From a virus (lineage: Duplodnaviria > Caudoviricetes), in the IMG/VR virus record IMGVR_UViG_3300032050_000002: a stretch of DNA of 64,000 bases, one strand, 5' to 3'. Positions 7,183 through 58,764 of the stretch are shown here, piece after piece. Under the pieces are notes generated by a model, which saw only the letters and a list, made by a program, of their open reading frames with translations, was not told where the DNA came from and made no database searches. The position numbers and the translations under genes were made by a program. Position 1 is the stretch's first letter. Each line of letters starts with the position of its first letter.

Positions 7183-7308
7183 AGTCAGGTGGCGGAATTG
7201 GTAGACGCTAGAGCTGGAGTTAGGTCACACGCATTTGGGTTCGAGTCCCGTTAGTTGGGCCAGCTAGGAGAGCCGTAGACCGTGTGGGTTCAAATCCCAC
7301 CCTGACTA
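7183..7308 (+). ncRNA. tRNA-like RNA 2 (126 nt), Leu-type D arm, internal second T-loop hairpin
   Basis: AGTCAGG TG GCGGAATTGGTAGACGC ... GTGGG-TTCAAAT-CCCAC CCTGACT A. Confidence 0.7.
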
Positions 7309-19904: not shown

Positions 19905-20778
19905 ACTTAATATTATTAAAATAATATTAAATGGTCAAATTAATTTTCATCATCTAAATCAAACTCATCCTCATCATCAAATTCCTCATCTTCATCATTC
20001 GGATTAGACTCCCAAGTCTCATATCTATCAGACAAAGAATTAAATGTTATATCGTAGTTATGTTTTACAAATTCTTTAAAAGTGTCAACCCATTTATCAC
20101 TAAATGTTAAATCAAGTTCCTTTTTTATATCATTATCCATATACAATATTGGAGAATTGATATCATTTACCCCTTCATTAACCCACTCAAATGCAACATC
20201 TTGGTTACCCCAATTACCGAAATAAAAATACATACGGTCACCATCTTCATTACCAAATTCATCTTCAGCATAAGTCCAATTAAGTTCACCTTTATCATTA
20301 TGTTCAAATAAATTTAGGATGTATTCAAACATTAATGATTTAAGTTTATTTTCCGTTATTAGATATTTCATATTACCAAAAAAACCAATTAAATGTTTTA
20401 TTTCCTTTAGAGGATAAATCTATTTTATGAAATTCCAAAAAAAACTTTTCAAAAGTTTCATCACCAAAAAGTTCATAAAGGTATTCTAACTCAGGATTTA
20501 CACTCCACCTTTCTTGAGCATGATAATAATCATTATCCGAATACTCTTCAATTATTAATTCACCATCTTGAGTATAGTATTCTGTTTTGAATATGTCGTA
20601 TTCTCTACTATAATCATTAGAGCCAAGGCCTATATGTTTTAATTTTGAATCTAATGGTTTTAATAGAATAGGCATTGTTAACTCAATGTGACGAATCATG
20701 ACCGATAACATCCTACTTTCTGTGATTAGATATTTCATATAAATTATAAATATACGAAAAATTATAATATTTATTTGT

Positions 20779-21738
20779 ATGAACCTAAGACAAACAATAA
20801 AAAGAATACTAAAAGAAGAATCAGAATCCGTTAATTGTAAATGTGGATGGTCTTGGAAATTATCTGATGGAGGCGATGACCCATACGTTTGTCATAAATG
20901 TGGAAGAGATAATAGTAAATTAAATAAAGTTTATTATGGTTTTGCTAAATTACCCAATTATTGGGTTGACGATAACGATTTCTCATACAACGATGAATTT
21001 TTCGATGATAAAGACTATGATGACCACTATTTTGATAATTTTAAAGACATGGACAAAATGTTTGGACATAGAAAATCTTTATTCGGAACAAGAGGTTTAG
21101 ATGTTGGGGATGAAAAAAGAACTTCACGGTCATTTAATCAATATAACGAACGATATGGTCCTGCAATTGTTAGGGTTATCAAAGATAAAAAAGAAAAATT
21201 AAATGAAGTTAGAGTTCCAAGAAGTGAAAGGGTGGAATTATATAAGGATGATAATATAATTGTTGTTGTTCCATTAACTCATAGAGCATTACAAAAATAT
21301 GCTACAAATTGCCAATGGTGTATTAATGATGATTTAACAGATTGGGAGGAGTATCATAAAGGAAGACACGCAGTCATCATCCAAAGAAAGCCAAAGAAAA
21401 GTAAGAAAGGTATTACAGGGATGGAAACATATGGTGAGATTTTTATTTTATCAAGATTAGATGAAGGAATGTGGGATTGGAAAACTGCCATAGATATTTT
21501 AGGGTATGATTTTGGTGGTAGTAAAGAAAGGGCTTTAGACTATTATGTTAATATATCAAATGATATAAATAACTTTGCAACAAATATAGTTTATTATTCA
21601 CCTGAAAATGGAATATATGATATGGAAGATAACTTCTTATGGAATTTCGATATTGAGATAAACGACATACCAAATGTAACTCCAAAAGTTATAGAGATGA
21701 TGGATGACTATCTAACCAATTCTGAAGAGGATAATTAA
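20779..21738 (+). CDS. Leader-bearing protein with Cys zinc-ribbon module
   Basis: MNLRQTIKRILKEE; CKCGWSW...CHKCG; TATTTAT 20768. Confidence 0.55.
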   Translation: MNLRQTIKRILKEESESVNCKCGWSWKLSDGGDDPYVCHKCGRDNSKLNKVYYGFAKLPNYWVDDNDFSYNDEFFDDKDYDDHYFDNFKDMDKMFGHRKSLFGTRGLDVGDEKRTSRSFNQYNERYGPAIVRVIKDKKEKLNEVRVPRSERVELYKDDNIIVVVPLTHRALQKYATNCQWCINDDLTDWEEYHKGRHAVIIQRKPKKSKKGITGMETYGEIFILSRLDEGMWDWKTAIDILGYDFGGSKERALDYYVNISNDINNFATNIVYYSPENGIYDMEDNFLWNFDIEINDIPNVTPKVIEMMDDYLTNSEEDN

Positions 21739-22256
21739 TCTCGCCACTTACTTAATACCTCGTTTAACAAATATTGAGAAACGTTATTAGTCCCAATAAT
21801 ATCATTAACAACCAAATCATCTTTATGTTTTAAAACATTACCAACAAGTATTGGTTCATCATAATACCCCAAATTATTTTCGGTAACCTCGTCAACAGAC
21901 CTCTCCATATCAAAAGGAACACCATAAAAACTTCTAACTTTATAATTTAAAGACTCCTCCAAATTTTTAACTCTTTTCATATTCTTACTTATTTTAACAA
22001 CATCTGTATTAATAACTTCTTCAACCCAACTCATCAAGATTGGTTTAAAATCATCTTCAATTAATGAAAACATTTTAAAGAAAAAATGAAAATAATCATA
22101 TCTGTACCACAATGTTCCCCTTACAAACTGAAAATACCAAAATTTTTTCTCCCTATCAATAAACCAAATAGACTTATCGTAACAAATAATTTCAACCGTA
22201 CTTAAATTAAAGTATAATTCATCAAAGATAATTTTTTTTAATTTATCAGAAACCAC
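21735..22256 (-). CDS. MISDKLK-family paralogue (decayed 22-aa repeats)
   Basis: MVSDKLKKIIFDELY...WFIDR.KK.WYF...LWYRY. Confidence 0.65.
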   Translation of the reverse strand: MVSDKLKKIIFDELYFNLSTVEIICYDKSIWFIDREKKFWYFQFVRGTLWYRYDYFHFFFKMFSLIEDDFKPILMSWVEEVINTDVVKISKNMKRVKNLEESLNYKVRSFYGVPFDMERSVDEVTENNLGYYDEPILVGNVLKHKDDLVVNDIIGTNNVSQYLLNEVLSKWRD

Positions 22257-22862
22257 AAAATAAAGATAATAATTAATTATATTAGAAACAATATCAATAT
22301 ATTTATAAATATGAATCTTAAACAGATTATTAGAAAAGTATTAAATGAGGAACACACAATTAAATCAAGACTTGAGCAAGTTGTTCAAAATCTTGGAATT
22401 ATGGAGGCGATTAAGTTAGTTGGAAGTGTTAAAAAACTATTTGAAGTATTAGAATTGGATTATAACGATATTAGAGTCCAAGAGGATATTGTTAAGAATT
22501 ATTTGTATCATAATGAATTTGAGAAAGTTCTCTTTTTAAAGGTTAATAGAGTATCACCAAACAGAACAGTTATAGATGTTTATATAGGACCTGATACTGC
22601 GGCAAATCATACAAGTTGGTTTTCCAGTGTGGTAAGTGATGAATTTAAAAAGGTATTTCCATTTAGGTTTGAACCCGTTTGGGAGTTTGAGTGGGCAAAA
22701 AGTAAAAGAACAAAAATATTTTTAGATGTTCATATTTTTGACGAAACCGAAAACATAACAGAATCTAAAGAAATTACAAAGATACAAATAAAATAACGAT
22801 TACAAATTCAGATAATACAGAAAAAACAACAAATGAATTGGTAGATGAAATTATTAAAAAGA

Positions 22863-23231
22863 TTAATTAAATTCATTTTTTGGAATAATAAACCTATGAC
22901 CATTAGTCCAATTAGTTCCTTTTAATACTAAATCAAACCCCAACTTATGACCAACCCAAGAAGTGATAAGTTCTACAGAATTATCATAACTCATTGAAAA
23001 AAAACCTGAAATCTCATCAATAAGATTATGATGAACAAACACCCAATCTCTTTCTTCACCAAAAGCGTTTTTTTTATAAACGGAAATAACCGAGTGGTCA
23101 TCATTTTCCGAATTTAAAAAGTAAATATAATTATTAAATTGTTTATTATTATCTTTAATAATAAAATCTTGGTTATCCAAATATTTATAAACCGCATTTT
23201 TAAATTTACTTTCTGTAATAACAAATTTCAT
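22863..23231 (-). CDS. MKFIITESK...YLDNQDF family paralogue
   Basis: Shares N-terminus and YLDNQDF with 25489, 25816, 28165. Confidence 0.65.
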   Translation of the reverse strand: MKFVITESKFKNAVYKYLDNQDFIIKDNNKQFNNYIYFLNSENDDHSVISVYKKNAFGEERDWVFVHHNLIDEISGFFSMSYDNSVELITSWVGHKLGFDLVLKGTNWTNGHRFIIPKNEFN

Positions 23232-23634
23232 AACAAATATTTTTTAAGGGGCGCCATCATACCATTCCCAAATCCTATCAACATCAACGCCATATTTAAC
23301 TTCAAACCATTTCCCAATAATTTTATAATCACCAACATCCTTAACACCTGAAAATAAATTACAAAAATATAATATTGAAGGACTAACTTCTAAAGTTCCG
23401 TCAACATAATAAAATGCCCCAAGTCCAGGTTCAATTTCACTCGTTTTATCAAAATCTACACGAAATTCATCATCATTACTTTCGCTATAGCCATCTTCTT
23501 CAGGACTCAATTTCAAACTATTAAGTTTATCTAAAACATATAATTTGGCTAATCTTTGGGCTTTTGATTCTGATATTATAATTCTCATTAACAATAAATA
23601 TAAAGATATTCATAAAATTAATATATTTATCAGT

Positions 23635-24600
23635 ATGGGAAAAGAAGACATTAATAAAATGTATTTAGGTAAAGATTATTCAAAACTTGTAAATGCGTTA
23701 TTCTCAAAGAAGTATAGTTGGTTTAAGAAAATAGATATAGATAATGTTATTTATAATAAATTAAAATATAAACCAAGTTTCTTAAATCTAAAAGGAACAA
23801 TATATGTTGATTCAGATTGGGGACACAAACAATTTAGAGAATATTATTACGATTTAGCCTTTCCCGAAGATACCGAGTTAAGTTTCGGTGATATTATGGG
23901 TGGAGATTTAAGTAAAGAAATACAAGATGATTTTAAAACAATATTCTCTTCTCTATATGGCACACAAATACCCACATATATGTCATTTACTTGGTTAATG
24001 GTAAAATTTGTTGATGAAGACAAAAGATTGGAAGAAACCATAAAAAAAGTATTAAGAAAAGAGAACAAATATAGTAAAAATATGAAATCAGATAGACCTG
24101 AAACCAATGAATCTGAATTAACCGAAAAATGTTGGCCAGGATATACCCAAAAAGGAATGAAGACAATGTTTGGAAAACGATATCCAAATTGTGTTAAGAA
24201 GAAAAAAACATTAAAAGAATGGTATGTGACAAGGGATAGAGAAAAAGAAATGGGGATGTCATACGTTAAATTTGAGGAAATAATAAATAATTTAATGGGT
24301 AAAAGATATGATTGGTGGGAAGGTATTAAAATAAAAGATATTTTATATTCTGGTTTTAGTGATGAAGTAGAAATTTATGGTGTTTTAAATGTTAATAGAA
24401 AATGGGCTAAACAACAATTAAAAAAACTTAGACCATTTTTTAAAACTAAAGATGGAGAGGGTTTGGATATAGATGATGTTTTCAACATGGAACTGATGAG
24501 AGAAATAGAAGAATATTTAACTATGTTGTTTTCAACATTAACTAATTTTAATAAAACTGAGGGAGTAAGATTAAATGCCTTACATATAAAATTTGCATGA
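23635..24600 (+). CDS. Modular protein with internal leader-like segments and CWPGY...NCV motif
   Basis: True start 23635 (TATTTAT 23624); LTEKCWPGYTQKGMKTMFGKRYPNCVK. Confidence 0.55.
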   Translation: MGKEDINKMYLGKDYSKLVNALFSKKYSWFKKIDIDNVIYNKLKYKPSFLNLKGTIYVDSDWGHKQFREYYYDLAFPEDTELSFGDIMGGDLSKEIQDDFKTIFSSLYGTQIPTYMSFTWLMVKFVDEDKRLEETIKKVLRKENKYSKNMKSDRPETNESELTEKCWPGYTQKGMKTMFGKRYPNCVKKKKTLKEWYVTRDREKEMGMSYVKFEEIINNLMGKRYDWWEGIKIKDILYSGFSDEVEIYGVLNVNRKWAKQQLKKLRPFFKTKDGEGLDIDDVFNMELMREIEEYLTMLFSTLTNFNKTEGVRLNALHIKFA

Positions 24601-25150
24601 TGAACTTAGAACAAACCATAAGAAGAATATTGATGGAAGAAATTAACAGTTCTTCATTATCTCCTTACATTAAAAGAAGAGTTGATTTATCCGATGAAAA
24701 AATTAAAAAGATTTTAAAAACCGAAATTTTAACAGATAAAGACATTAATGCTGATGATGAATTTAGACTTAATAAGATAATAGATAATACAACAGGAGAG
24801 TTATTAAAATGGGTTAACCAAGAAGAATATGATGACAACTATGATTCAGTATATGAACATATAAAAAATAATTATTCTGATTTCATATTACAATACTTTA
24901 GAGAAGTTTTTAAAGATGATGAAGAAGCGAAGTTTTGTTTTATTAAACATAGTGAAAGATATGGAGGAAGAGGATTTACAGAATGTTTCGGTTCTTGGTT
25001 TGGTTTTCTAAATGGTTATGGAAGTTGGTTACCTAATGTTGATTGGAATAAAGTTAAAGAAGAATTAAAAACAAAAGATAGAATATTATTGGCAAGACCA
25101 TTAGAAGGTCATATCTATGGATATTATTTTTCGGTATTAAAGAAATGATT

Positions 25151-25489
25151 TTAAACCCAATTATCCGGCATTTTTAACAAAGTTGCTTCAAGACCAATCC
25201 AACTATTTGTATCAACGACTTTCACATTTAATTTATTCTCAACCCAACCAGCAATTACGTTTCTGGTAACAATATATTTTGATGAAAAGAAACCATCCAT
25301 CTCAACAATCAAATCAGAATTAATATAACACATTCCCGTACCATAATCATACATTATTTGAGCAATCTCATCATCTTCTGAATTGGCAAAGTAAGCTCCG
25401 TCATAAGTATGAATACGAATAAAATCTTGATTGTCCAAATACTTTTCCATCGCGGAAACTATTTTTGATTCGGTGATAATAAATTTCAT
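25151..25489 (-). CDS. MKFIITESK family paralogue
   Basis: YLDNQDF; C-terminal WVENKLNVKV motif. Confidence 0.65.
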   Translation of the reverse strand: MKFIITESKIVSAMEKYLDNQDFIRIHTYDGAYFANSEDDEIAQIMYDYGTGMCYINSDLIVEMDGFFSSKYIVTRNVIAGWVENKLNVKVVDTNSWIGLEATLLKMPDNWV

Positions 25490-25516
25490 ATAGTATAAAT
25501 ATATAAACTAATCAAA

Positions 25517-25816
25517 TTAGAATGAAAATATGCCGTAACCAACAACAGGAACATTTAACTTATTTGACACCCATTTAGCAATAATATCACCGGCGGTTAC
25601 CTTCTCAATAGAGAAAAAATCAATTAATTCATCAACTAAGTCTTTTTTAAAATAACACATTTCACTTACATTTGAATAACCGATGAGTCCATCCACATCA
25701 TCCTCAGAATTTAAAAAACGAACTGTATTTTTATAACCCTTCACAATAAAGTCCTGATTATCCAAATACTTAAAGATAATGTTTTCCAATTTTGATTCGG
25801 TGATAATAAATTTCAT
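25517..25816 (-). CDS. MKFIITESK family paralogue
   Basis: Start 25816, 4 nt after minus-strand TATTTAT (25821-25827). Confidence 0.65.
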   Translation of the reverse strand: MKFIITESKLENIIFKYLDNQDFIVKGYKNTVRFLNSEDDVDGLIGYSNVSEMCYFKKDLVDELIDFFSIEKVTAGDIIAKWVSNKLNVPVVGYGIFSF

Positions 25817-25843
25817 AATCATAAATATACGATATTTATTAAT

Positions 25844-26689
25844 ATGCGACTTAAAGAAACTATGATAAAAAGATTATTTAATCTTTATGATGATATATTT
25901 AAGAAATTAAAGTTAGAAATTTATACCGATGAATCGGGAACCATATATGGAAAATGGTTTGATAAAAATGAAAAATTAATTTTCAGTAGAAATCATTTTG
26001 GAACATTATGGGTCGATGACTGCGACTCATATACCACACTATGGATTTATTCAAAGGCATTATCCCTAAATAAAGAAGAGTTTGAATTATCTTTAATAGA
26101 TTATTTGAATCTAAAATATCAAAACCAATCAAAAAATAGACCAATAAAAAGTATTGGTGATGAAAATCATTGTTTGGAGGATATGGAAGATGAAACCGAA
26201 AATTTGCAAGAATCCATAAGAAGAATATTAAGGGAAGAAACGGATTTTTATTATAATCTAAAGACGGTTGCGTTTGAAGAACTACCATTTGAATATCAGA
26301 GGTCATTAATAATTTATATGTATGAAGGACCCGTTGTTGATTGGTCATTAGACCTGGATAGGGACATTGTTTCAAAGAATGATGAACTTGTTAAGGTTCT
26401 AATAAATGATTATATGTCGGTAGGTAGAAATAAGAACAAATCATTTGCTTATGGTATAGTTCCAATGAAAACTCTAACAAAAGAAATTGCCGAGAGAATG
26501 GGATATGATAACTACAATGATTATCATAAAGATTATGTAGGTTCAAATTATGTTCAAAAACATAAAGAGTCGGTATGGCCAATTATTCTAAATCCTGACA
26601 ATGATGAATTAATAGAAGATGGTTGGCATAGATTCCACGATTATTATAGTAGGGGATTAAAGAAAGTTCCAGTGGTTATGTTTATGTAG
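25844..26689 (+). CDS. Modular protein with C-terminal ParB/Srx-like domain
   Basis: WPIIL...LIEDGWHRF...GLKKVPVV; internal LQESIRRILREE. Confidence 0.6.
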   Translation: MRLKETMIKRLFNLYDDIFKKLKLEIYTDESGTIYGKWFDKNEKLIFSRNHFGTLWVDDCDSYTTLWIYSKALSLNKEEFELSLIDYLNLKYQNQSKNRPIKSIGDENHCLEDMEDETENLQESIRRILREETDFYYNLKTVAFEELPFEYQRSLIIYMYEGPVVDWSLDLDRDIVSKNDELVKVLINDYMSVGRNKNKSFAYGIVPMKTLTKEIAERMGYDNYNDYHKDYVGSNYVQKHKESVWPIILNPDNDELIEDGWHRFHDYYSRGLKKVPVVMFM

Positions 26690-27075
26690 AAATTACAAAC
26701 TAATCATATTAGTTTAAGTCCCAACATATTTCTGTAAGGTATTTGTCAGTTCCGTTTACTTTAGAAACTTCTTCTTTGTGTTTAGTTATAAATTCTTCAT
26801 TATAATTTCCCAAAACACCTTGGTCCCAATGATTTAATTTTGCAATACGAATAAACTTTCCATATTCTTTTTCGGTCAATCTACCCTTCAAAGGTATTAC
26901 ACTTCCAACACAAGTATTCCACTTTGTTTTTCTACCATTATATGTTACATAGTAATAATCTTGCTCATCATCACCAATAGCAATTAACCTTTCTATATCC
27001 CAAGATTCAGTTATTACAAATTGACCTTTAAGTTCTTCAAATTCTGATAATATTTTTTGTAAGTTACTATCCATA

Positions 27076-27732
27076 TTATTTTATTGTATGATTTAATACC
27101 TTGTCAACATAACTTTCTTCATCAATCATTTCGCCACCATCCATATTAGTTACCGTATGATTTAATATATCTTCCACCTCAGATTTAAATTGGTGAAGAT
27201 GGTCATTAGCAGTACCAGGAGTACATTTCAATATCTCTCCCATCCACTTATCCAAACTTGATGCGGTTTTATCAACCTTACAATTTAATACTTCTTCCAC
27301 CAATTCAGGAGCGTAATAAACACCACCATCTGTTGCATTAACCTTACAATTTAATACCTCTTCCACCTCTTCATTCATAAAAAAGACAACACGTACGGTT
27401 GTATTAACCTTACAATTTAATACCTCTTCCACCCGGTTATAAATGGTGATGGCACCAACAGCAGTTGTATTAACCTTACAATTTAATACCTCTTCCACCC
27501 AATCTTTTAAAATGGGCTCAAATCGAGCGGAGTCAAGAGAAAATAATAAGAAAAAATCATTAAAGAAACTATATCTCCACCACAATCTACCATCTTTTTG
27601 TAGTTCAAAATACCAGTACTTCTTTTGTCTGTCAATAAACCATATATTACCATTATAGTTGATAATCTCAGTCTTCCCAAGTTCTCTATATAGTTCATCA
27701 AAGACAATCTTTTTTAATTTATCTGAAATCAT
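27076..27732 (-). CDS. MISDKLK-family paralogue containing a repeat-spacer array
   Basis: TATCTTTG 4 nt before ATG; four VEEVLNCKV repeats. Confidence 0.7.
   Translation of the reverse strand: MISDKLKKIVFDELYRELGKTEIINYNGNIWFIDRQKKYWYFELQKDGRLWWRYSFFNDFFLLFSLDSARFEPILKDWVEEVLNCKVNTTAVGAITIYNRVEEVLNCKVNTTVRVVFFMNEEVEEVLNCKVNATDGGVYYAPELVEEVLNCKVDKTASSLDKWMGEILKCTPGTANDHLHQFKSEVEDILNHTVTNMDGGEMIDEESYVDKVLNHTIK
27266..27499 (-). repeat. CRISPR-like array, 4 x 36-nt repeats with 3 unique 30-nt spacers, in frame
   Basis: Repeats at 27266, 27332, 27398, 27464; consensus GGTGGAAGAGGTATTAAATTGTAAGGTTAATACAAC on the minus strand. Confidence 0.8.
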
Positions 27733-27819
27733 AATACAAAGATAATAATAAAAAATGGATTAGACAAATTTAATTAGGTATTCTCAATTTATTAAAAATA
27801 AGTGGTCTTCTTACTTGTT

Positions 27820-27919
27820 GTGTCTAACACCTTGATTTGCGAGGTATTCCCGACAAAGGCTTAATCTTACCAAAACAAAATACTGCGTCTAACACCTTAA
27901 TTTGTAAGGTATTCTCAAC
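27820..27919 (-). repeat. Two 35-nt repeats with a 30-nt spacer at the end of ORF 27824..28165
   Basis: GTTGAGAATACCTTACAAATTAAGGTGTTAGACGC / GTCGGGAATACCTCGCAAATCAAGGTGTTAGACAC. Confidence 0.6.
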
Positions 27920-28165
27920 CCACTTACCGATAAGGTTTTTAGAATCAAGATACTCTAAAGAAAAAAAAGAAGAAATTTCGTCCACCAAATCAACATTAAA
28001 ATAACACTTACCAACATTTTTATCGTATTTAATTTGAAAAAACTCATCTTCTATCGAATTAAAAAAATAAATATAAACCCCCTTTTCAACCTTAACAAAG
28101 TCCTGATTATCCAAGTACTTAAAGATTACTTGTTCCATTTTAGATTCGGTGATAATGAATTTCAT
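27824..28165 (-). CDS. MKFIITESK family paralogue
   Basis: YLDNQDF; WVENTLQIKV. Confidence 0.65.
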   Translation of the reverse strand: MKFIITESKMEQVIFKYLDNQDFVKVEKGVYIYFFNSIEDEFFQIKYDKNVGKCYFNVDLVDEISSFFSLEYLDSKNLIGKWVENTLQIKVLDAVFCFGKIKPLSGIPRKSRC

Positions 28166-28177
28166 ATAAGATAAATA

Positions 28178-28555
28178 TTAGTAGATGTGTTCATTATCAT
28201 AAAATGTCATTATTTCGTTAGTTTTAATATTCATATGTTTTTCAAACCATTTTAATAAATGACTTTGTATTTCTTCCCAAGTTTTCATGCTAAACAAATT
28301 AAATATATAACCGTAAAAATCATCGGCCAAATAAACTTCTGAATTGCCAAAAGCAATACGTGATTTAGAGCCCTTATATTCTTTATTTAAAGTTAATATA
28401 ATAATAACTTCATTATCGTTATCATCATACCAAACATCTCTATGATACAACCCATTAGGATTAGGAACTCTTTTATGTTTTAATCCCAAAAATAGTTCGC
28501 CAATAAAAGAATCAATTATATTATCTAATTTAGATTCGGTGATAATGAATTTCAT
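28178..28555 (-). CDS. MKFIITESK leader protein
   Basis: N-terminal motif. Confidence 0.6.
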   Translation of the reverse strand: MKFIITESKLDNIIDSFIGELFLGLKHKRVPNPNGLYHRDVWYDDNDNEVIIILTLNKEYKGSKSRIAFGNSEVYLADDFYGYIFNLFSMKTWEEIQSHLLKWFEKHMNIKTNEIMTFYDNEHIY

Positions 28556-29339
28556 ATAGTAATAAATATGAAGATAATAAGAAATTATGAACTACTTCTT
28601 AATCACCTTAATATCAGAGACATTTCTTGTTTCTTTAAGATACTTTTTGGCGTCTTTAATGGAGTTATGTAACTTATAGGGGAGTCTAGGTATTAAACCT
28701 GATTTTTCTGTATATACGTGTATGTAGTTATTACAAGGAAAAGTTATAACGGTTGTTTTTTTCATAATACAAATATAAGAATAAATTAATCAAAAATGTA
28801 ATCCCCATCAATTAGTCTTTTAATCTTTTCCAACCATTGTGATGAGTGGGAAATATAACTATTAAATTTCTCTATCTCATCAAAAGAATATAATGATTTG
28901 TCTCTATTCTGATTATACTCAATATAACTTTCGAGTTTGGTTTTCTCCTGTTCGTAAAACTTTTCTAAATTATCCATAATACAAAGATAATAATAAATTA
29001 TGAACTAAACAAACTTAGTGATTATAACCTGGCTCACTATGAAATTCATAACCTTCCCCACAATCAAAGTAACAAGATACATTAGGGACTCTACCGTATT
29101 TTTTAAGGGGAGATAACATTTCAAAAAGGAGTTTTACTTCGGTATCAATTTCCATTTGTTTTTTAGCGGGTAAACACTCCTCAGATTTTAAATAACAAGC
29201 ATATTCTGACCCAACCATAAACTTTAAATTAGGGATATCATTAAACCTATCCTCAACTTTAACATCATAAAGATAAGGGTATTTTTTAAAGATTAATTTT
29301 CTTACTACATTTTCTAATAGTTCTTCCATAATAGTATAA

Positions 29340-31800: not shown

Positions 31801-32761
31801 ATATAAAAATATTATTATGAAAAAAGTTATAAGATTAACGGAAAGGGATTTAATGAAGCTTGTAAAAAAGGTTATTAAAGAATCAGAAAAAGAAACTGAA
31901 TTAGATTCAGATTTCTATGATAATGAATTAAATGATGAAAAGGTTATTAATAGTGTTAAATGGTATTTGAAGGACGTTGAAGGTGTTAATCTTCGAGGAG
32001 ATGAAACTGATGATGAACTTATTAATATGTATACTAATTTGAGATATAATAGAAAATAATAATACTTTAAACAACCATTATATTAGAAGGGTCTAAAACT
32101 GAAAAAAAAATCTGGAAAAAATTTTATAAAATTCAATATATTTATATATAAAAAATACATTATGAAAAAAACTATACGATTAACAGAATCAGATTTGATT
32201 CGACTCGTTAAACGAGTTGTTAATGAACGAGAAGAAGGTGAGAATATGATTCGTATCCCAAAAGAATATGGTGGAGTTGTAATGGAACTTGGGAAATCCT
32301 CAACACCTGAAGAAATTATGGACAGTTATAATACAATGGTTGAGGAAGGAACCCCACTTGTAAGTTATTCTGATGGTGTATTCTATAATCAGAATGATGA
32401 AGAGATTTCTGTGGATGTGGTACTTGATGAATTGAATTATTCAATTACAGGTGGTGAGGAAGATGATGATACGATAGGACCCTCACCTAAAAGAAAAAGA
32501 TTTGGTGATGGAGGTGAATCCGAGTTTTTCTTAACGGATAATATTATATTTAAACGTTTTAACGGTAGATTGGGTTTCTTCTACCAACCATCAAAAAATG
32601 GTGGAGGTATTAGTTTATCAGACGAACAAAAGGAAATGTTAATTAATTTTTTATCTAAATAAAAAATATTGAGCCCCTCTCAATAAAAGAATTGTTAAAA
32701 CGACCCCATCTTATTTTAGGTGGGGTTTTTTATTTTAAAAAAAAATTATTATCTTTGTGGT

Positions 32762-33226
32762 ATGATTTCGGATAAATTAAAACAGGTTATCTTTAAGGAG
32801 TTATATTATCAACTTGGTAAGGTTGAGATTATTCCTTATCAAGATAGTATATTTTTTATCCATAGGGAAAATAAGTATTGGTATTTTGAATTTGAAAAGT
32901 GTGGAAGGTTATGGTGGAGATACGATTTCTTTAATGATTTTTTTAAGATATTTTCTTTAAGTATTGAGGACTATACAAAGATTATTTCTGAATGGGTGGA
33001 AGAGGTATTAAATCATAAGGTATCTACAACGCAGGTTGCGACTTCAATTGGAATCGAAGAGGCGGAAGAGGTATTAAATTGTAAGGTATCTACAACTAAT
33101 TCATACTTCACTCACTCTATTGAAAAGGTGGAAGAAGTATTAAATCATAAGGTATCTACAACTTCAATGTTTGAAATTGATGATGATAATAGTGTGGAAG
33201 AGATATTATCACATACTAATAAATAA
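32762..33226 (+). CDS. MISDKLK-family paralogue containing a repeat-spacer array
   Basis: TATCTTTG 32750-32757, ATG 32762. Confidence 0.7.
   Translation: MISDKLKQVIFKELYYQLGKVEIIPYQDSIFFIHRENKYWYFEFEKCGRLWWRYDFFNDFFKIFSLSIEDYTKIISEWVEEVLNHKVSTTQVATSIGIEEAEEVLNCKVSTTNSYFTHSIEKVEEVLNHKVSTTSMFEIDDDNSVEEILSHTNK
32995..33226 (+). repeat. CRISPR-like array, 3 x 36-nt repeats + degenerate 4th, 30-nt spacers, in frame
   Basis: Repeats at 32995, 33061, 33127, 33193(deg.): GGTGGAAGAGGTATTAAATYRTAAGGTATCTACAAC. Confidence 0.8.
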
Positions 33227-33234
33227 ATTTAAAG

Positions 33235-33756
33235 ATGGTATCGGATAAGTTAAAACAAATTATCTTTAATGAGTTATATACACAACTAAAGGATGTTGAG
33301 ATTATTCCTTATAATGGGAGCGTATGGTTTATTAATAGAGATGAGAAGTATTGGTATCTTGAATTAAATCCTAATAATCATTTATGGTGGAGGTATTCTT
33401 TCTTTGTGGATTTTTTTCATTTGTTTTCCCTTGAGATTAAAGAATATGAACCCCTTATTAGAGAATGGACCGAAAATATATTAAATCATAAGATATCTAA
33501 AATCACAATAGGTCATTATGGGTGCAGACAATTGCTCGAACAGATGTTAGATTGTAATATTGAAAGCTCCAATCATTCTGAATATAATATTGAGTTTGTT
33601 TCTAATTATAATATCCTAACAACTGGTGGAAATGGTTTTCACTATGATAAACTATTTGATAATGTTTTGGAAACCACTAAGATTGAAAGTTCTTCTTTCG
33701 CTAAGGTTACCCTTACCAAAAATATCGATATTATCTTAAATCAACCGGATGTATAG
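33235..33756 (+). CDS. MISDKLK-family paralogue (decayed repeats)
   Basis: MVSDKLKQIIFNELY...LWWRY. Confidence 0.65.
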   Translation: MVSDKLKQIIFNELYTQLKDVEIIPYNGSVWFINRDEKYWYLELNPNNHLWWRYSFFVDFFHLFSLEIKEYEPLIREWTENILNHKISKITIGHYGCRQLLEQMLDCNIESSNHSEYNIEFVSNYNILTTGGNGFHYDKLFDNVLETTKIESSSFAKVTLTKNIDIILNQPDV

Positions 33757-34960
33757 ACCGACCCGTCCGAACTCACTTCGTTCGTGGTTCAATCCCCCCG
33801 CCCCCTTTTTTTGCTTAATGATATATTTATTGTTATGAAATTTATAATAACGGAATCACAAGATGAAATGCTTAAGTTGGAAAGACAGTCCGATATTTTG
33901 TATAAATTATTTGAAATGATGTATCCTGACAATTATGATGTGGTGAGAGAATCATCTCGTTATGGTGATGAAACTGAAGTATATTCTAATGAAGAACGTG
34001 ACCAATTATTATTTTATTATAAATGGAGAAATAAAGAGTTTTATATTGGGACTACTTTTATTCAAGAGTTGTATGATATAACCCATCTTGATTTTTTAAA
34101 TCCTGGGTTATTAGAAACAGGGTCACCTGAAAGAGAAGAGTTTGATAATATGATTAAGGTTTTTGCCAAAATACATTATGGGTGGACCGTAAATAAAGTT
34201 TGGCTTCATTGGTATTAAAATATATTTATATTATATGAATCTTGGTGAATTATCAAACGCTCTTGAAAAATTATATAACTCAGTTGGTAACAAATATCTA
34301 ACGAGTAACTTTATTACCGAACCTTTTGAGTTCAAGGTTAATGTTATATATGATAGGGATAATGATATGTATGATTATATTATTAAAGTTTATAGCAATC
34401 CCGATATCCCCGAAGAATTTTTTTATAAACCCGAAGTCAAAGAAGAAAAGAACACAGATGGAATTCATATTTCAGTTTTGAAAAGTAAATTCAAAGAGTT
34501 AATACAATATGTTGAACCGAATTCCAAAAGATACTATGGGATTGAATTTATGAATAAGAAAAAGAAATGAAATTTATAATATCCGAACATAGACTAGACA
34601 AATTAATATATTCATTTATTGATGAACATGTTAAAGATATGTTTAATAGAACACTTCCAGATAGTTTTATTGTATATAGTAAAAATACCGAAAATGAGTT
34701 TGATGATGATTTCGTTAAATTGGAATATGATAACTTTGACGGTAGATTATATATTGAAGACGGTTTTATAGGATTAATTTCTGATATGTTTGGTCTTCAT
34801 CCTACTGAAGCAATGGTTAAAATTCACGATTGGTTTGAGGACTATGAAGGAATTAGAGCTAAGTATTTAGAAGGTTGGTATAACGGTAAAAAGCACAAAA
34901 TTGATATGGAATAACTTACCATACTTTACACATTCCTTTTTTTATCCTATAATTCTTCTT

Positions 34961-37258: not shown

Positions 37259-37290
37259 TTTGGCAGATTCACAAAAAGTCCTTATCTTTG
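37259..37290 (+). promoter_or_regulatory. Bacteroidota-type promoter TTTG-N20-TATCTTTG
   Basis: TATCTTTG 37283-37290, ATG 37295. Confidence 0.8.
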
Positions 37291-37294
37291 TATT

Positions 37295-37429
37295 ATGAAA
37301 ATGAATGATATATTTGATGAAGGATTTGATTCCTTCTTTGATGGTGAAAGTGAGAACCCATACTCTATTGGTGATATTAGATATAAGGTTTGGGAATTAG
37401 GATATAATAACGCAAAATCAGGAAACTGA
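37295..37429 (+). CDS. 44-aa microprotein with ribosome-modulation-factor-like motif (not in ORF track)
   Basis: MKMNDIFDEGFDSFFDGESENPYSIGDIRYKVWELGYNNAKSGN*: G(F/Y)..G...PY.....W..G(Y/W) spacing. Confidence 0.45.
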   Translation: MKMNDIFDEGFDSFFDGESENPYSIGDIRYKVWELGYNNAKSGN

Positions 37430-53196: not shown

Positions 53197-56100
53197 TTAA
53201 TCTATTTTAGAAAAAAGTGTTGTTAAATACTTTTTATTCTCATCATATATTGTTATTTGGTAGAAACCCGTATTCAAAAATCTTAAATCAACTTCATCTT
53301 CAGAATTTATATTTTTAGTTAAATAAACTTTACCTAATATATCTGAAACAACTAAATTAAATTTCTCACTTTCATTATGAAATATTCTTATTTGTAATAA
53401 ACCATTACCCGGATTCGGAAATACTATAAATTCAAAATCTTTATTATCTATTTCACCAAAACCAACTGTTTTTGATGTATTACAAACTTTAGTAACTCCA
53501 AAATAAGCCATTGGACTTGAACCACAAGTATTAACACCCATCACACTAAATGTACCACCCATAAAAGATGAGCTTGTTTTAGCCATAACACTATTTCCTG
53601 TTGTTGAACCAATAAATTGAGTTCCGTTAGAGTTATTCCAAATATAACTTGTAATTCTTGGAGATGTTGATGCAACTAATCTAATTGTATCAGGAAAACA
53701 AACCGATGAAGTTCCTGTAACAGTGGGTCTAACAGTCAATAAACCAACTTTCTTTTTACTTAATACACTACCACAAGCAAATTGTGTCGCTAATCTTATA
53801 CTATCACAAGAATTATTAATACAAGATGTGGATTCAAAATTACTTGGGAAAAATACGTCTATAGAGTTCGTTCCTTGACCTCTCACTATTTGAGCATTTC
53901 CTGGTACAGTCCAATTAAACGATAACGCTCCTGTTGTAGATACACTATACGTGTTAGTAAACCCATTATCAACACAATTAACACCACTTATACTAACACT
54001 TGGTAAACCCAAATCAACGGTTCTAATTCTTGTTATAGGATTTCCACATCCACCCGTAATTACAACTTGAATGTTTCCACCTGTAAAACCATTTTGGAAT
54101 GTTACATTAATTGAATTAGTTCCCTGACCACTAATTATTGTTGAGTTAGCAGGTACAGTCCACAAATAGTTAACTCCACTTATTGGACTAACACTAAACG
54201 TTGCAGGAGTGTTAGTTCCTACTAAACTACAAACACTTCTTACACCTGAAATTGCTGAAGCGGAAATTGTTGATGTTGTTGTTGATAGTGTTCTATTTGA
54301 AGATATACTTCCTCCACAACCATTGTTTAAGTTAACACTAATTGTTCCTGAACTAAATGAGTTAGATACTAATACATTTATTGAATTAGTTCCTTGACCC
54401 GATTGTATTGTCATATTAGTAGGAACAGTCCAAGTAAATGTTCCACTTTGATTTGTAACACTATAAGTAACTGATTGACCTAAGTACGGACACAAATCGC
54501 CAGGGCCTGTTATAGTTCCTATATTAGCGTAAAGATTATTATTAGATACAGTTCCATAAGTCATAGGTGATGAACCACATTTGTTAACTGACATCACACT
54601 AAATTGACCTGAAGTAAAGTTTGTACTAAATTTTACTTTAAGTGTGTCATTACTACTTGAACCTATTATACTAACACCATTAGGTACATTCCAAATATAC
54701 ATAAACGATGTAGGTACAGAATCGACTCTATAAGTGTAAATTGTATTACCATCAGCACAAACTGTTGTAGGTCCTAAGATAGACGTAGGTCTAACAACTA
54801 ATCTATCAATCGTAAATTGAGTTGTACTACTTCCACAAGAATTTGTTGCAGTAACTGAACCACCTGAACCACTTACCAACATTATTGACACTTTAAATTG
54901 TACAGTATCGTTACCTTGTCCACTATATATATTAACTCCATAAGGTACAACCCAATTATAAGTCATATTTGGTTGTGAATTTGTTACAATGTATGATTTA
55001 ATACTACCTGTAGGTTCACCACAGAAACTACCTGATACGATTGGTTTATTAGGTAATTTAGTAACCCAAATACTTCTATGATAAGTAATACCATTAGAAA
55101 CAACATCAACTTCAATACTATCTTGAACGAACCCTGAAGAAAAATTAACATTTATTGTTGGGTTACTTAATCCATTAGTTGATGTTATACCATTAGGTAA
55201 AATCCAAGTAATACTTTCAGGACTTGCGTTAGAATAATCAATGGTATATGAACCAGAACTAAGACCACATATTGAAGTGGGACCTTCTATTTGACCAACA
55301 TTAATAATTGCTGACGTACAACCCAAAGTCATTGGAGAAACTGATTGACAACCTTTAGAATCCGTAACAGTTAATGTGTAATTACCTGACGCGACGCCCG
55401 TTAAATTTTGTGTTGTTTGACCATTTGACCAACTGTATGTAAAAGGAGGAGTTCCACCAATAACACTACTACTTACAACACCATTATTTGAACCACAATT
55501 AGGGTAAGTTGTTATATCTAATGATATACTAATTTCTGATGGTTGAGAAATATTAATATATGTAATTTTTGTACAACCTTTATTATCTGTAACAGTAATT
55601 TGATAATTACCTGATGTTAAATTAGAAATACTACTTTGAGTATTTCCTGTATTCCACATATAAAGATAAGGTAGAGTTCCTCCTGACGCAGTAACCGAAG
55701 CGCTACCATTATTACCACCATAACAATTCACATTTGTCGTTGTTACAATTGTTGTTAGTTGAGTTGGTTGAGTTATTGTAACCGTTCTTGTCGTCTGACA
55801 CCCCTTTGAATCCGTAACTGTTACACTATAAGTGTTTGCCACAAGTGAGAAAATATCTTCTGTTGTTTGACCATTACTCCATAAGTAAGTATAAGGTGAT
55901 GTTCCTCCTGATGGAGTTAAGTTTATACTACCGCCAGGTTGTCCAAAACAACTTGGGTTAAAACTAGTTGATGTTGAGGCAAGTAACGTAGGTTGAGTAA
56001 TTGTGATTGATGTAGTTGATGTACAACCATAAAAATCTGTGACTGTAACTGAATAATCTCCTGATGTTAGGTTTGATATGTCCTCAGTAGTTCCACCATT

Positions 56101-58764
56101 AGACCAATTAAAATTAAAAGGTGAATTACCTAACGGAGTTAAATCTATACTACCATTATTACCACCATTACAACTAACATTAACACTTGTTGTTGATAAT
56201 ATAGAAGGAAATCTAACAGTCCAAGAAGTTAATACATCATAAGCATTGTTAGAACATCCAATACCTGTAGAACAATCACCTCTGCGACCTCTTATTTGAA
56301 CTACACTTCCGGCGGTTAGTGATGTTGTAGATATTAAAGTTCCTGGAGTATAACTTTGCCAAGATGTACCATTAATAGTGTATTGAAATATATCTGAACA
56401 GTTTATACCATTACTACCCGAATTGAATGTCGCTGATACATCACTACCAACACAAACATTGTTTGAGTTGGGTGTTTTAGTATTTAAAGTTGGATTAATT
56501 GGGTCAGGAATTACATTAACGGTATGAACGGGTGAGGTTCCTACACACCCTTTAGAATCTGTAACTACTACTCTATAATCTCTTGTTGATGTAGGTGTTG
56601 CGTTTATTGTTGTGGTTGTAACACTGTTTTGCCAAGTAGAGTTAAAAAATTGCCATTGATAAAAATAAGTTGGAAATCCCGATGTTACAGTTGAAGTTAT
56701 ATTATTAGTTCCCGAACCTCCAGCACATATCTGACTTGTGTAAGTGTTTAAGGTGACAGATGGGTTTGTTGCGGTAGTTAACGACACAGTATTTGAATTA
56801 ACAGATTGATTACAAGTATTTGTAATACTAACATAATAATTTCCTAATGTTGATGTAGAATAAGTCGATGAGTTAGCCCCTGATATTGGATTGTTATTTA
56901 AAAACCATTGATAAGTAAAAGGTTGTCTAACTCCTGATGCGGTAACTGAAAAAGTTACTTGTGATGTACAAGTTGTTTCATTAATAGGTTGTGTAGTTAT
57001 TGTTGGCGGTGAAGAAGTGTAATTAACTGATAATTGAAATGTTCCTCTTGCATTACTATAACCTGTAACCATCACATAATATTCTGTTAAATCTGTTGTT
57101 GCAAATGTAACTTCAGAACGAGTACTACAAAAATCATCACTATAGGTTAAACAAGTAAGTGCTCCACAAGTTCCTGTATATACAAATAATTTAGTATCAA
57201 AAGAAGTTCCTGTACATAAACTTAATGTTACATTTTGTCCGTTACCAATAACCTTATACCAAACCCCTGGTGCAGTCCAAGTCTCAGAGCCACCGTTATA
57301 ACAACTTGGTGAATCACCTGTTTGAGTCGCATTTTGAGTACTACCATTGAAAGTTGTATTACAAGAGGTGATAATCGCTCCTGAACATTCATCATTTGAA
57401 GGTGGTGGAATTGTACACTGAACACTTCTTGTTCTTATTGTTACTGATTCTCCACATGAGTTATTTGTATGAGTATAAAATCTCACAGTTTCGTTTGAAC
57501 TTGGTGTATAAACAACTGGTGTTGTCCCGTAAACTAAAACTGTTGTTCCTCCATTATTACTAATAGTTATAAAATCTGTTAACACCGAACTTCTAAATGT
57601 ATATTGAATTCCTCCTGTTAAACTAACCACTGAGTATTCACCCGCGTAACCACCTGTTGTAATATTTTCTTGAGTTCCTGAACAAGTTGGTGTGTATGTT
57701 GATGTCGGCCATTGACCATTTGAAGCGGTTAGACATCCAGGACCTGAAGTTGTAAATGTCCATACCGAACATCCTATAGCATTACCTGCAGAATTCTTTG
57801 GGATTATTTGCCAATAATATTGTGTGTTATAACTTAATGTTGATGGAGTATATGTTGTTCCAACTTGGTTAACAACAAAAGGTGGAGACGAATTTGACCC
57901 AAAATAAACATCATAACTTGTTGCACCAGATACCGCTCCCCAAGTTAAAGTAGGTCCTATAAATACACCCGTTTGATTATTTGTTGGCGATGTTAAAGTT
58001 GCACAAATAGGAACCGCTTGATAAGTTAATATAACTCTACCCGCAGCACCTCCACCACCAGCTCTACCTGTTGTATTATTTTTATACGCACCGCCACCTC
58101 CACCACCTGGAGATACACCTGACGAACCTGCTCCACCTGAAGAGTGACCACTACCACCATTACCTCCACCAGCAGGTGCGGTAGCTCCCGCAGTTCCCGT
58201 TGCATCAACACCGGCTAAAGTAGTTCCTGCTGATGAGCCCCCTCCTCCCGAAGTTACCCCACCAACTCTACCACTACCACCCCTACTTGATGTTCCTATA
58301 CACCCTGTTGTAGAACCAACTCCAGCAGTAGTTCCAACTGCACTTTGTCCGCCCTTAGCGACAACACCGTTAGTTGATACTGTAGGGGCAATGTTTGACA
58401 ATTTACTAACCCAAGTATCATTACCGTTAGATGCGTTACCTTGAACTCCAGCTCTTGCTGCTCCAACACTATAATAAATTGTTTGACCAGGTGTTACAGA
58501 TATTGTTGTTGTTGAACGAGAACCTCCCGCTCCGCCCGCAAATCCCCCTGTTCCTGATGTTGATTGTCCGGCACCAGCTCCACCACCACCCCAAGCATCA
58601 ATTTTAATTGAGTATACGTTAGCAGGGACAGTCCAAGTTCCTGATGATGTTCCAACATTTGCTCCTGAGGCGGGCATTGTTTGAGAAAAATTTTTAAGAT
58701 TACATAAAATAAAAATAGATAAGAATAGGGTCTTAAAAAATGATGATAAAGTAAGAGGTTTCAT
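53197..58764 (-). CDS. 1855-aa adhesin-like T9SS cargo (Gly-rich, FnIII, SprB repeats, PKD-like, T9SS CTD)
   Basis: Signal peptide; CNGGNNGSIDL...WSNG.TTEDI..L..G.YSVTVTD..GC repeats; C-terminal VFPNP...DILGK...L.TGFY. Confidence 0.85.
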   Translation of the reverse strand: MKPLTLSSFFKTLFLSIFILCNLKNFSQTMPASGANVGTSSGTWTVPANVYSIKIDAWGGGGAGAGQSTSGTGGFAGGAGGSRSTTTISVTPGQTIYYSVGAARAGVQGNASNGNDTWVSKLSNIAPTVSTNGVVAKGGQSAVGTTAGVGSTTGCIGTSSRGGSGRVGGVTSGGGGSSAGTTLAGVDATGTAGATAPAGGGNGGSGHSSGGAGSSGVSPGGGGGGAYKNNTTGRAGGGGAAGRVILTYQAVPICATLTSPTNNQTGVFIGPTLTWGAVSGATSYDVYFGSNSSPPFVVNQVGTTYTPSTLSYNTQYYWQIIPKNSAGNAIGCSVWTFTTSGPGCLTASNGQWPTSTYTPTCSGTQENITTGGYAGEYSVVSLTGGIQYTFRSSVLTDFITISNNGGTTVLVYGTTPVVYTPSSNETVRFYTHTNNSCGESVTIRTRSVQCTIPPPSNDECSGAIITSCNTTFNGSTQNATQTGDSPSCYNGGSETWTAPGVWYKVIGNGQNVTLSLCTGTSFDTKLFVYTGTCGALTCLTYSDDFCSTRSEVTFATTDLTEYYVMVTGYSNARGTFQLSVNYTSSPPTITTQPINETTCTSQVTFSVTASGVRQPFTYQWFLNNNPISGANSSTYSTSTLGNYYVSITNTCNQSVNSNTVSLTTATNPSVTLNTYTSQICAGGSGTNNITSTVTSGFPTYFYQWQFFNSTWQNSVTTTTINATPTSTRDYRVVVTDSKGCVGTSPVHTVNVIPDPINPTLNTKTPNSNNVCVGSDVSATFNSGSNGINCSDIFQYTINGTSWQSYTPGTLISTTSLTAGSVVQIRGRRGDCSTGIGCSNNAYDVLTSWTVRFPSILSTTSVNVSCNGGNNGSIDLTPLGNSPFNFNWSNGGTTEDISNLTSGDYSVTVTDFYGCTSTTSITITQPTLLASTSTSFNPSCFGQPGGSINLTPSGGTSPYTYLWSNGQTTEDIFSLVANTYSVTVTDSKGCQTTRTVTITQPTQLTTIVTTTNVNCYGGNNGSASVTASGGTLPYLYMWNTGNTQSSISNLTSGNYQITVTDNKGCTKITYINISQPSEISISLDITTYPNCGSNNGVVSSSVIGGTPPFTYSWSNGQTTQNLTGVASGNYTLTVTDSKGCQSVSPMTLGCTSAIINVGQIEGPTSICGLSSGSYTIDYSNASPESITWILPNGITSTNGLSNPTINVNFSSGFVQDSIEVDVVSNGITYHRSIWVTKLPNKPIVSGSFCGEPTGSIKSYIVTNSQPNMTYNWVVPYGVNIYSGQGNDTVQFKVSIMLVSGSGGSVTATNSCGSSTTQFTIDRLVVRPTSILGPTTVCADGNTIYTYRVDSVPTSFMYIWNVPNGVSIIGSSSNDTLKVKFSTNFTSGQFSVMSVNKCGSSPMTYGTVSNNNLYANIGTITGPGDLCPYLGQSVTYSVTNQSGTFTWTVPTNMTIQSGQGTNSINVLVSNSFSSGTISVNLNNGCGGSISSNRTLSTTTSTISASAISGVRSVCSLVGTNTPATFSVSPISGVNYLWTVPANSTIISGQGTNSINVTFQNGFTGGNIQVVITGGCGNPITRIRTVDLGLPSVSISGVNCVDNGFTNTYSVSTTGALSFNWTVPGNAQIVRGQGTNSIDVFFPSNFESTSCINNSCDSIRLATQFACGSVLSKKKVGLLTVRPTVTGTSSVCFPDTIRLVASTSPRITSYIWNNSNGTQFIGSTTGNSVMAKTSSSFMGGTFSVMGVNTCGSSPMAYFGVTKVCNTSKTVGFGEIDNKDFEFIVFPNPGNGLLQIRIFHNESEKFNLVVSDILGKVYLTKNINSEDEVDLRFLNTGFYQITIYDENKKYLTTLFSKID

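Follow-up and report, generated by a model that had tools for sequence, protein, structure and literature searches.

The window (the whole stretch of DNA that was analysed, 64,000 nucleotides of IMG/VR record IMGVR_UViG_3300032050_000002) comes from an uncultured lake phage of Bacteroidota. It contains a small gene whose 3' third is an array of repeats and inserts, all of them in frame, which we call array 2; array 1 is the related array carried by a paralogue on the opposite strand. The features of the array-2 locus are as follows.

32702..32727, plus strand: intrinsic terminator of the upstream gene (10-bp stem, 5 G-C pairs, T run)
32749..32764, plus strand: motif TTATCTTTGnnnTATG, linked to start codons and here ending on the ATG (present 15 times in the window, 0.41 expected)
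32762..33226, plus strand: gene of 154 aa, N-terminal domain plus translated array (from the open reading frame and alignment)
32762..32994, plus strand: conserved N-terminal domain of ~78 aa (helix, four strands, two helices)
32995..33030, plus strand: repeat 1, 36 nt, encoding VEEVLNHKVSTT
33031..33060, plus strand: insert 1, 30 nt, QVATSIGIEE, 47% G+C
33061..33096, plus strand: repeat 2, 36 nt, a rare GGCGG variant (AEEVLN)
33097..33126, plus strand: insert 2, 30 nt, NSYFTHSIEK, 27% G+C
33127..33162, plus strand: repeat 3, 36 nt
33163..33192, plus strand: insert 3, 30 nt, SMFEIDDDNS, 23% G+C
33193..33226, plus strand: degenerate terminal repeat including the stop codon, VEEILSHTNK*, kept in all orthologues

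The open reading frame extends upstream to a GTG at 32720 (32720-33226), which we rejected as the start because it falls within the terminator; the true start of the gene is the ATG at 32762. All 15 copies of TTATCTTTGnnnTATG in the window end on a start codon, that of the array-1 gene included (27730-27745, minus strand). Written as (T/G)TATCTTTGnnnTATG, the motif stands at start codons at 15 sites, for example 1791-1806, 27730-27745 (minus), 32749-32764 and 37282-37297. Within it lies TAnnTTTG, which we take to be the -7 promoter consensus of Bacteroidota. The motif is probably a Bacteroidota -7 type promoter used by the phage, from which leaderless mRNAs arise, and its presence here suggests that the array-2 mRNA is leaderless or nearly so. 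It is also a further pointer to the phylum of the host. An independent pointer to a Bacteroidota host is the T9SS sorting tail of the phage ORF at 53197-58764 (minus strand), whose 1,855 aa comprise a glycine-rich domain, SprB repeats, six PKD-like domains and a T9SS C-terminal sorting domain.

The period of array 2 is exactly 66 nt and its repeat copies are 86-93% identical (42-nt repeat family D5); the product reads as the N-terminal domain, three units of VEEVLNxKVSTT plus 10 variable residues, and VEEILSHTNK. The repeats at 32995, 33061 and 33127 and the degenerate terminal copy at 33193 had been recognised in the initial annotation, and their coordinates, 66-nt spacing and frame were all borne out, as was its statement that the repeat is akin to that of array 1 and the spacers are not: the array-1 repeat differs at 5/36 positions, and the three 30-nt inserts of array 2 bear no relation to one another or to the inserts of array 1. 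Within a unit likeness is all-or-none rather than graded, with 36 nt that are 86-100% alike adjoining 30 nt that are unrelated both within and between arrays. The units of an ordinary protein tandem repeat are related over their full length and diverge by point mutation; those of array 2 do not follow this pattern. Tandem Repeats Finder missed array 2, since only 36 of each 66 nt are repeated, and found the sister array at 27264-27499.

The coding DNA of the N-terminal domain sits where the leader of a CRISPR array would, and the last helix of the domain extends into the first repeat (WVEEVL). AlphaFold2, run on an alignment of 30 sequences, gave the domain a modest fold of a helix, four strands and two helices (pLDDT 55-78), and gave the array-encoded tail a pLDDT of ~30; the tail is accordingly predicted to be disordered. 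A wide fold search (VIA) returned no match for the domain (the best Z of 4.0 is noise), Pfam and PHROGs profiles gave nothing significant on the four paralogues, Rfam found neither a CRISPR-DR nor any other family on the arrays, a phage database search at the DNA level yielded no match and an Atlas feature search no usable one.

The initial annotation had assigned the gene to a family of four, and tblastn indeed finds exactly four copies of the N-terminal domain in the window, at the coordinates given there. Besides the array-2 gene these are:

33235..33756, plus strand: tandem paralogue, in which only the first unit is recognisable (33462-33503, 76% to the repeat)
27076..27732, minus strand: paralogue carrying array 1 (array 27266-27499), with four good repeats, then decayed
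21735..22256, minus strand: fourth paralogue, with a decayed tail

The tandem paralogue lacks a start motif and may share a transcript with the array-2 gene. A decayed 22-aa periodicity had been claimed for it and for the fourth paralogue. One to three units can be made out in them by eye, but their lag-22 similarity (0.21 and 0.15, against 0.57 and 0.39 for the live arrays) is at background, being no higher than at their own other lags. A further short array lies at 27775-27919 (plus strand), with full 36-nt copies at 27819-27854 and 27884-27919, spaced 65 nt apart, and an additional partial copy at ~27775-27789. Its repeat retains a 6-bp internal stem (ACCTTA...TAAGGT) and matches type VI-B repeats at 22-23/36 positions on the plus strand; it is antisense to the ORF that it overlaps (27824-28165, minus strand) and extends beyond that ORF's stop, which suggests that its units were written at the DNA level whatever the frame.

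Several other features of the window deserve mention. The region 20300-28560 (both strands) is a nest of paralogous small genes, among them other families with conserved 5' ends (repeat families D1, D2 and D7), such as ...TTCGGTGATAATAAATTTCAT at six gene starts. Directly 3' of the stop of the tandem paralogue, 33757-33815 is G+C-rich in surroundings of 30% G+C and holds a tRNA T-arm-like GGTTCAATCC, a C run and a T run. An Rfam tRNA match of 36 bits at 7183-7308 spans 126 nt for a model of 71 positions, and hence represents a tRNA-like gene with a large insert. At 507-1778 (plus strand) the phage encodes a UvrC-like protein with a GIY-YIG domain and a UvrC RNase H endonuclease domain.

Type VI-B (Cas13b) arrays have 36-nt repeats and ~30-nt spacers (10.1101/092577), as in CRISPR-2 of F. 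columnare ATCC 49512, with its 36-nt repeat and 30-nt spacers (PMC5395568), and the 66-nt units of the window, like those of 50 arrays in related phages, have the same 36/30 geometry. The array-2 repeat agrees with the F. columnare CRISPR-2 repeat at 24/36 positions, all of the last 12 included. For further reference repeats, 401 evenly drawn Bacteroidota genomes were scanned for GTTG-N28-CAAC arrays with 30-nt spacers, and three had them. In one, G328, the array adjoins Cas13b (746 bits to NF038190) and Csx27; in another, G132, it lies directly downstream of cas13b (820 bits to NF038190) on the same strand, and a second array of 7 repeats on another contig has the same repeat and is open in no frame. 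Without gaps, the phage repeats match the G132 repeat at 27-29/36 and the F. columnare VI-B repeat at 23-24/36 positions, against only 16-18/36 for the reverse complements of VI-B repeats, and 0-1 of 200,000 composition-preserving shuffles reach the forward identity even when the better orientation is allowed (p <5e-6). As VI-B repeats are themselves 25-27/36 identical to one another, the phage repeat falls inside the VI-B family. On the strength of these comparisons it is homologous to the VI-B direct repeats of Bacteroidota, which takes the comparison with CRISPR beyond analogy.

The repeats match when the phage gene is read in its sense direction and the G132 and G328 arrays in the direction of cas13b; from the published architecture (10.1101/092577, PMC8092290) we infer that this orientation is the crRNA sense, transcribed from the leader side. 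Of the marks of a VI-B repeat, which are complementary 5' GUUG and 3' CAAC ends and a defined hairpin with a U-rich loop, the phage repeat has the 3' CAAC; its 5' end reads GGUG instead of GUUG and the internal stem is gone. As RNA the repeat folds at -3 kcal/mol, no better than shuffles (z -0.3 to -1.4), with stems that differ between arrays 1 and 2. The GGTG end, the lost stem and the shuffle-like fold mark the phage repeat as a derived form. There is no cas13b with csx27 or csx28 beside array 2, the one ORF of the window longer than 423 aa being the SprB/PKD/T9SS-tail protein; four related phage records (156-241 kb, fragments estimated to be 52-82% complete) yielded neither cas13b (NF038190) nor cas1, and G132 likewise yielded no cas1. 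The cas13b-associated repeats of G132 (C8:276-707 and C16:3822-4054; L096, L098) vary at positions 28-31 (AAAT, AGGT, TGAT, AGAT), which are the positions of the variable codon in the phage repeat. Such variation from copy to copy is unusual for CRISPR repeats.

The gene belongs to a large family whose members differ by whole units. Database homologues number 1,554 for the array-1 protein (E <=0.001) and 486 for the array-2 protein (E <=1e-10), and homologue lengths rise by 22 residues (132, 154, 176, 198, 220 and so on). A scan of IMG/VR with the repeat DNA pattern found 22 loci on contigs of up to 241 kb that together contain 50 arrays, each of 2-15 repeats, with as many as three genes in tandem in one phage; a locus search with the array-1 protein as query returned no loci. 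The contexts are those of large phages, with homing endonucleases, a T4 Y16D-like gene, DHFR and glutamine synthetase. Orthologues of the array-2 gene (~70-80% overall identity) share the same upstream read-through, a near-identical N-terminal domain and the terminal ...EE(I/V)LSHTNK repeat, and carry 2 to 5 units whose cassettes are mostly different. Four cassette orders, from the N-terminal domain outwards, illustrate this.

Window: QVAT.. / NSYF.. / SMFE..
P0127: NEFN.. / GKAF.. / SMFE..
Metagenome locus L030: ... / LLKE.. / QVAT.. / GKAF.. / SMFE..
L039: identical to the window

The window thus has the distal cassette alone in common with P0127 and two cassettes in common with L030. Insert 1 recurs in L030 at 29/30 positions, and there too it is tied to the GGCGG variant of repeat 2. 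Insert 2 occurs in L039 (the same array) and in the X15 contig described below, and in no other array examined. Insert 3, common to P0127 and L030, is the distal and oldest insert of array 2. In contigs of four lake runs aligned to the locus, depth in the repeat bin is 20-100 times that of the flanks and many alternative inter-repeat sequences of 24-38 nt are seen, some of which are inserts present in IMG/VR arrays. A 1.4-kb contig from a 2025 lake run (X15) links 32898 to 33064 through 99 letters where the window has 165; judging from the table of joints, it appears to be a related phage that lacks exactly the first repeat and insert 1 (66 nt). In the lineage of array 1, near-identical proteins differ by one unit proximal to the N-terminal domain (P0003/P0006; P0010/P0023).

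These comparisons bear directly on the initial annotation, which held that spacers had been inserted repeatedly at the WVEEVLN site and that this view would fail if repeat number and spacers were fixed across homologues. The collected homologues keep the N-terminal domain and vary in both the number of units and the cassettes, so neither is fixed. The suggestion that the degenerate distal repeat mirrors CRISPR polarity likewise agrees with what we see: the distal repeat is degenerate and fixed, and unit differences are proximal, as expected of growth at the leader end, a pattern in which loss of a unit looks the same as gain. Repeated insertion itself is favoured by the varying cassette sets and the proximal differences, and we keep it as a conditional claim, no protospacer having been found. 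QVAT is next to NSYF in the window and next to GKAF in L030; with such different downstream neighbours, insertion at the leader end is by itself insufficient, and loss of units and recombination are also needed.

The arrays are open in the gene frame. No stop in the gene frame occurs in any of 116 non-redundant inserts, against 28-63% with a stop in the other five frames, and units that depart from 66 nt measure 63, 72 or 105, all multiples of three. In shared inserts, a small sample of 19 substitutions, 10 changes are synonymous and 9 non-synonymous, where 23% synonymous would be expected. VEEVLNxKVxTT is retained between lineages despite synonymous differences (GTA TTA against GTC CTC). On this evidence the array is under coding selection and kept translatable. 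Within an array the repeats are near-identical at third codon positions as well, and synonymous differences appear between lineages (L002 against the window). Across 106 distinct repeats, the synonymous positions 19, 22, 25 and 34 are 95-100% invariant (AAT nnT AAG ... ACA) and positions 10, 13, 16, 28 and 31 vary freely. Two layers of constraint are at work, one on the protein and one on the DNA. This invariant stretch, together with the terminal ACAAC, falls on the segment that VI-B repeats conserve and also on the leader-distal motif common to II-C and VI-B, which Hoikkala et al. suggested is read by the integrase (PMC8092290).

The inserts differ in composition from the phage that carries them. 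Their G+C is 0.37-0.47 in every array, against 0.29-0.34 in the phage loci and 0.26-0.33 in the N-terminal domain, and is elevated at all three codon positions; their amino-acid usage is close to that of random DNA of 40% G+C, with Arg exceeding Lys, the opposite of the N-terminal domain. They look foreign by these measures, and in array 2 the high G+C is confined to insert 1 (47%), inserts 2 and 3 (27% and 23%) being A+T-rich like the phage. No protospacer was found for inserts of array 1, array 2 or the L001 array with single-insert seeds and sampled genomes (well under 1% of Bacteroidota species). The core of insert 1 had 0 matches in genome contigs and 0 in IMG/VR, and in metagenomes it was met in two arrays and in one conserved bacterial locus at 20-22/30, which is chance level. 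Inserts 2 and 3 had 0 matches in IMG/VR, the whole of array 2 gave only noise against 151 genomes of the family of G132, and the L001 array gave no match in 61 genomes. For the newest insert of array 1, an 18-mer seed search of genome contigs returned at best 26/30 in a Bacteroidota MAG (L067), which is not significant after 33 trials, and 61 genomes of that MAG's family held nothing closer than 26/30. Nor did any of 135 inserts have self-matches in ~300 kb of phage DNA. The II-C acquisition motif is an upstream TTTANNNNN (PMC8092290). With no protospacer found, and no cas1 or cas13b in the related phage records, integrase-mediated insertion of the units is something that we infer.

Taking these observations together, we believe, with a probability of roughly 0.6, that array 2 is a VI-B-type array maintained in frame, which grows through a host integrase at the junction with the N-terminal domain, loses and exchanges units by recombination and is selected to stay translatable. 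We propose the following model. The unit is a 36-nt repeat plus a 30-nt insert and, because these 66 nt equal 22 codons, gain or loss of any unit preserves the reading frame. New units would enter between the coding region of the N-terminal domain, in the position of a leader, and the first repeat. The agent would be a CRISPR integrase from the Bacteroidota host, in parallel to F. columnare, where type II-C Cas1-Cas2 supplies the VI-B array with new spacers in trans, roughly half of which are taken from the bacterial chromosome (PMC8092290); that precedent supplies a concrete candidate mechanism for the phage array. Units would later be lost and reshuffled via recombination between repeats, and inserts with an in-frame stop would be purged. 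The product is a small protein in which a conserved folded N-terminal domain precedes a tail, (VEEVLNxKVxTT + 10 arbitrary residues)n, that is hypervariable and probably disordered. As to its role, our guess would be host takeover or counter-defence, with selection for diversity of the tail.

The VI-B homology of the repeat, the evolution of the arrays by whole units and their maintained translatability are already in hand. A wider claim goes further. The adaptation machinery of the host, Cas1-Cas2, would write arbitrary 30-nt DNA together with a copy of the repeat into phage genes and so create in-frame modules of 22 residues. Spacer capture would then generate protein diversity in a large gene family of jumbo phages, besides its use as immune memory. 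We advance this only tentatively, at somewhat below even odds.

The strongest competitor is that a single capture joined a VI-B array to a phage gene and that the array is now only a protein repeat, reshuffled by homologous recombination or unequal crossing-over between the 36-nt repeats, among the four paralogues and co-infecting phages, with no ongoing insertion by an integrase. Such a fossil array would account for the lack of protospacers in the searches run and of cas genes in the phage records searched, for a repeat that is constrained as protein and has lost the VI-B hairpin, and for purifying selection on shared inserts, and the mosaic cassette orders require recombination anyway. However, the inserts form a very large pool (116 from 50 arrays, none related to another, in a family of >1,500 homologues), their G+C and amino-acid usage have not equilibrated to the phage as those of old resident sequence should have, near-identical genes recurrently differ by a single proximal unit, and protein selection leaves the conserved synonymous sites in the 3' half of the repeat unexplained. 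We therefore consider a single ancient capture unlikely, although it deserves to be kept in view.

Slightly less probable still, in our estimation, is that the array acts chiefly as RNA, its mRNA being a putative pre-crRNA mimic whose repeats the host Cas13b binds or processes, and so becomes loaded with phage guides, as decoy or for retargeting, with translation secondary. The repeats are crRNA-sense relative to the gene, in the same direction as cas13b in G132 and G328, the 66-nt unit equals a mature VI-B crRNA with its 30-nt 5' spacer and 36-nt 3' repeat (10.1101/092577), and phages are known to employ repeat mimics as RNA anti-CRISPRs and crRNA-like RNAs (PMC10651486, 10.1101/2024.10.29.618823). 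Yet the repeat has no significant fold, its predicted stems differ between the two arrays, the 5' GUUG and internal stem of VI-B repeats are lost, and a decoy leaves the in-frame openness, the units in multiples of three and the synonymous excess unexplained. Among the RNA runs listed, none contains the stretch. An RNA role would be compatible with our preferred explanation, growth of an in-frame VI-B-type array, as an added function. Finally, that this is an ordinary tandem-repeat protein, a 'false CRISPR' within a gene whose likeness to CRISPR is coincidental, is very improbable: the translation of the array, the protein-level conservation of VEEVLNxKV across lineages that differ at synonymous sites and the predicted disorder of the tail, as in many linker repeats, would fit it, but coincidence does not account for 27-29/36 identity to a cas13b-adjacent repeat in one orientation only and beyond shuffles, for a geometry of exactly 36/30, for the all-or-none profile within units or for inserts of foreign-looking composition, and the adjacency of cas13b argues against the similarity being an artefact of phage DNA wrongly binned with G132.

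The usual view of a CRISPR array is that of a memory bank that does not code for protein. Translated arrays are not described in the literature found by full-text search, nor in a 2024 review of CRISPR in mobile elements. In the phage genes, an array whose repeat family can still be recognised as CRISPR is preserved as an open reading frame across >1,500 homologues; a genome may have as many as four of them, and a gene as many as 15 units. Should a CRISPR integrase be what inserts the units, this would be a previously undescribed route to protein diversity, in which a virus exposes its own genes to the adaptation machinery of its host. In practical terms, CRISPR finders and gene callers each annotate half of such loci.

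How does the phage array compare with known systems? With the VI-B arrays of F. columnare (CRISPR-2), G132 and G328 it shares the 36/30 geometry, 23-29/36 repeat identity in the same orientation, the conserved 3' ...TACAAC end and variable positions at 28-31 as within the G132 arrays, as well as a degenerate distal repeat, differences by whole units, more often at the transcription-proximal end, and the lack of adaptation genes in cis. Unlike them, it is borne by a phage, in four paralogous copies per genome, and does not stand beside cas13b or csx27/28; it is intragenic and in frame, with stop-free inserts and a repeat that encodes a conserved 12-residue motif; and its repeat is without the 5' GUUG and internal stem, and no protospacers were found for it. 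In the in-trans acquisition described for F. columnare VI-B (PMC8092290), as is presumed for the phage, an array with no integrase of its own receives 30-nt units at its leader end; spacers from the host genome are tolerated and common there, and recognition is thought to rest on leader-distal repeat motifs, which the phage repeat retains. The F. columnare array of that study, unlike the phage array, is chromosomal.

Phage mini-arrays, solitary repeat units, Racrs (PMC10651486) and crRNA-like RNAs (10.1101/2024.10.29.618823) are similar in that a virus carries copies of a host-type CRISPR repeat with no cas genes, and by analogy virus-borne copies could compete for the effector or the adaptation machinery of the host. 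Racrs and crRNA-like RNAs are short and non-coding and keep their structure; the phage array, in contrast, is long, reaching 15 units in relatives; it is translated, its RNA structure has degenerated and the content of its inserts is hypervariable. An RNA anti-CRISPR or mini-array is a non-coding mimic that keeps the structure bound by the effector, whereas array 2 has lost that structure and lies in an ORF under coding selection. A further parallel is found in the diversity-generating retroelements of phages and in lamprey VLR with its LRR cassettes, where a process at the DNA level also diversifies one part of a protein and leaves a constant scaffold. Those systems differ from the phage array, which has no reverse transcriptase, template repeat, adenine-specific mutagenesis or library of donor cassettes; instead, its new material appears to be arbitrary 30-nt DNA.
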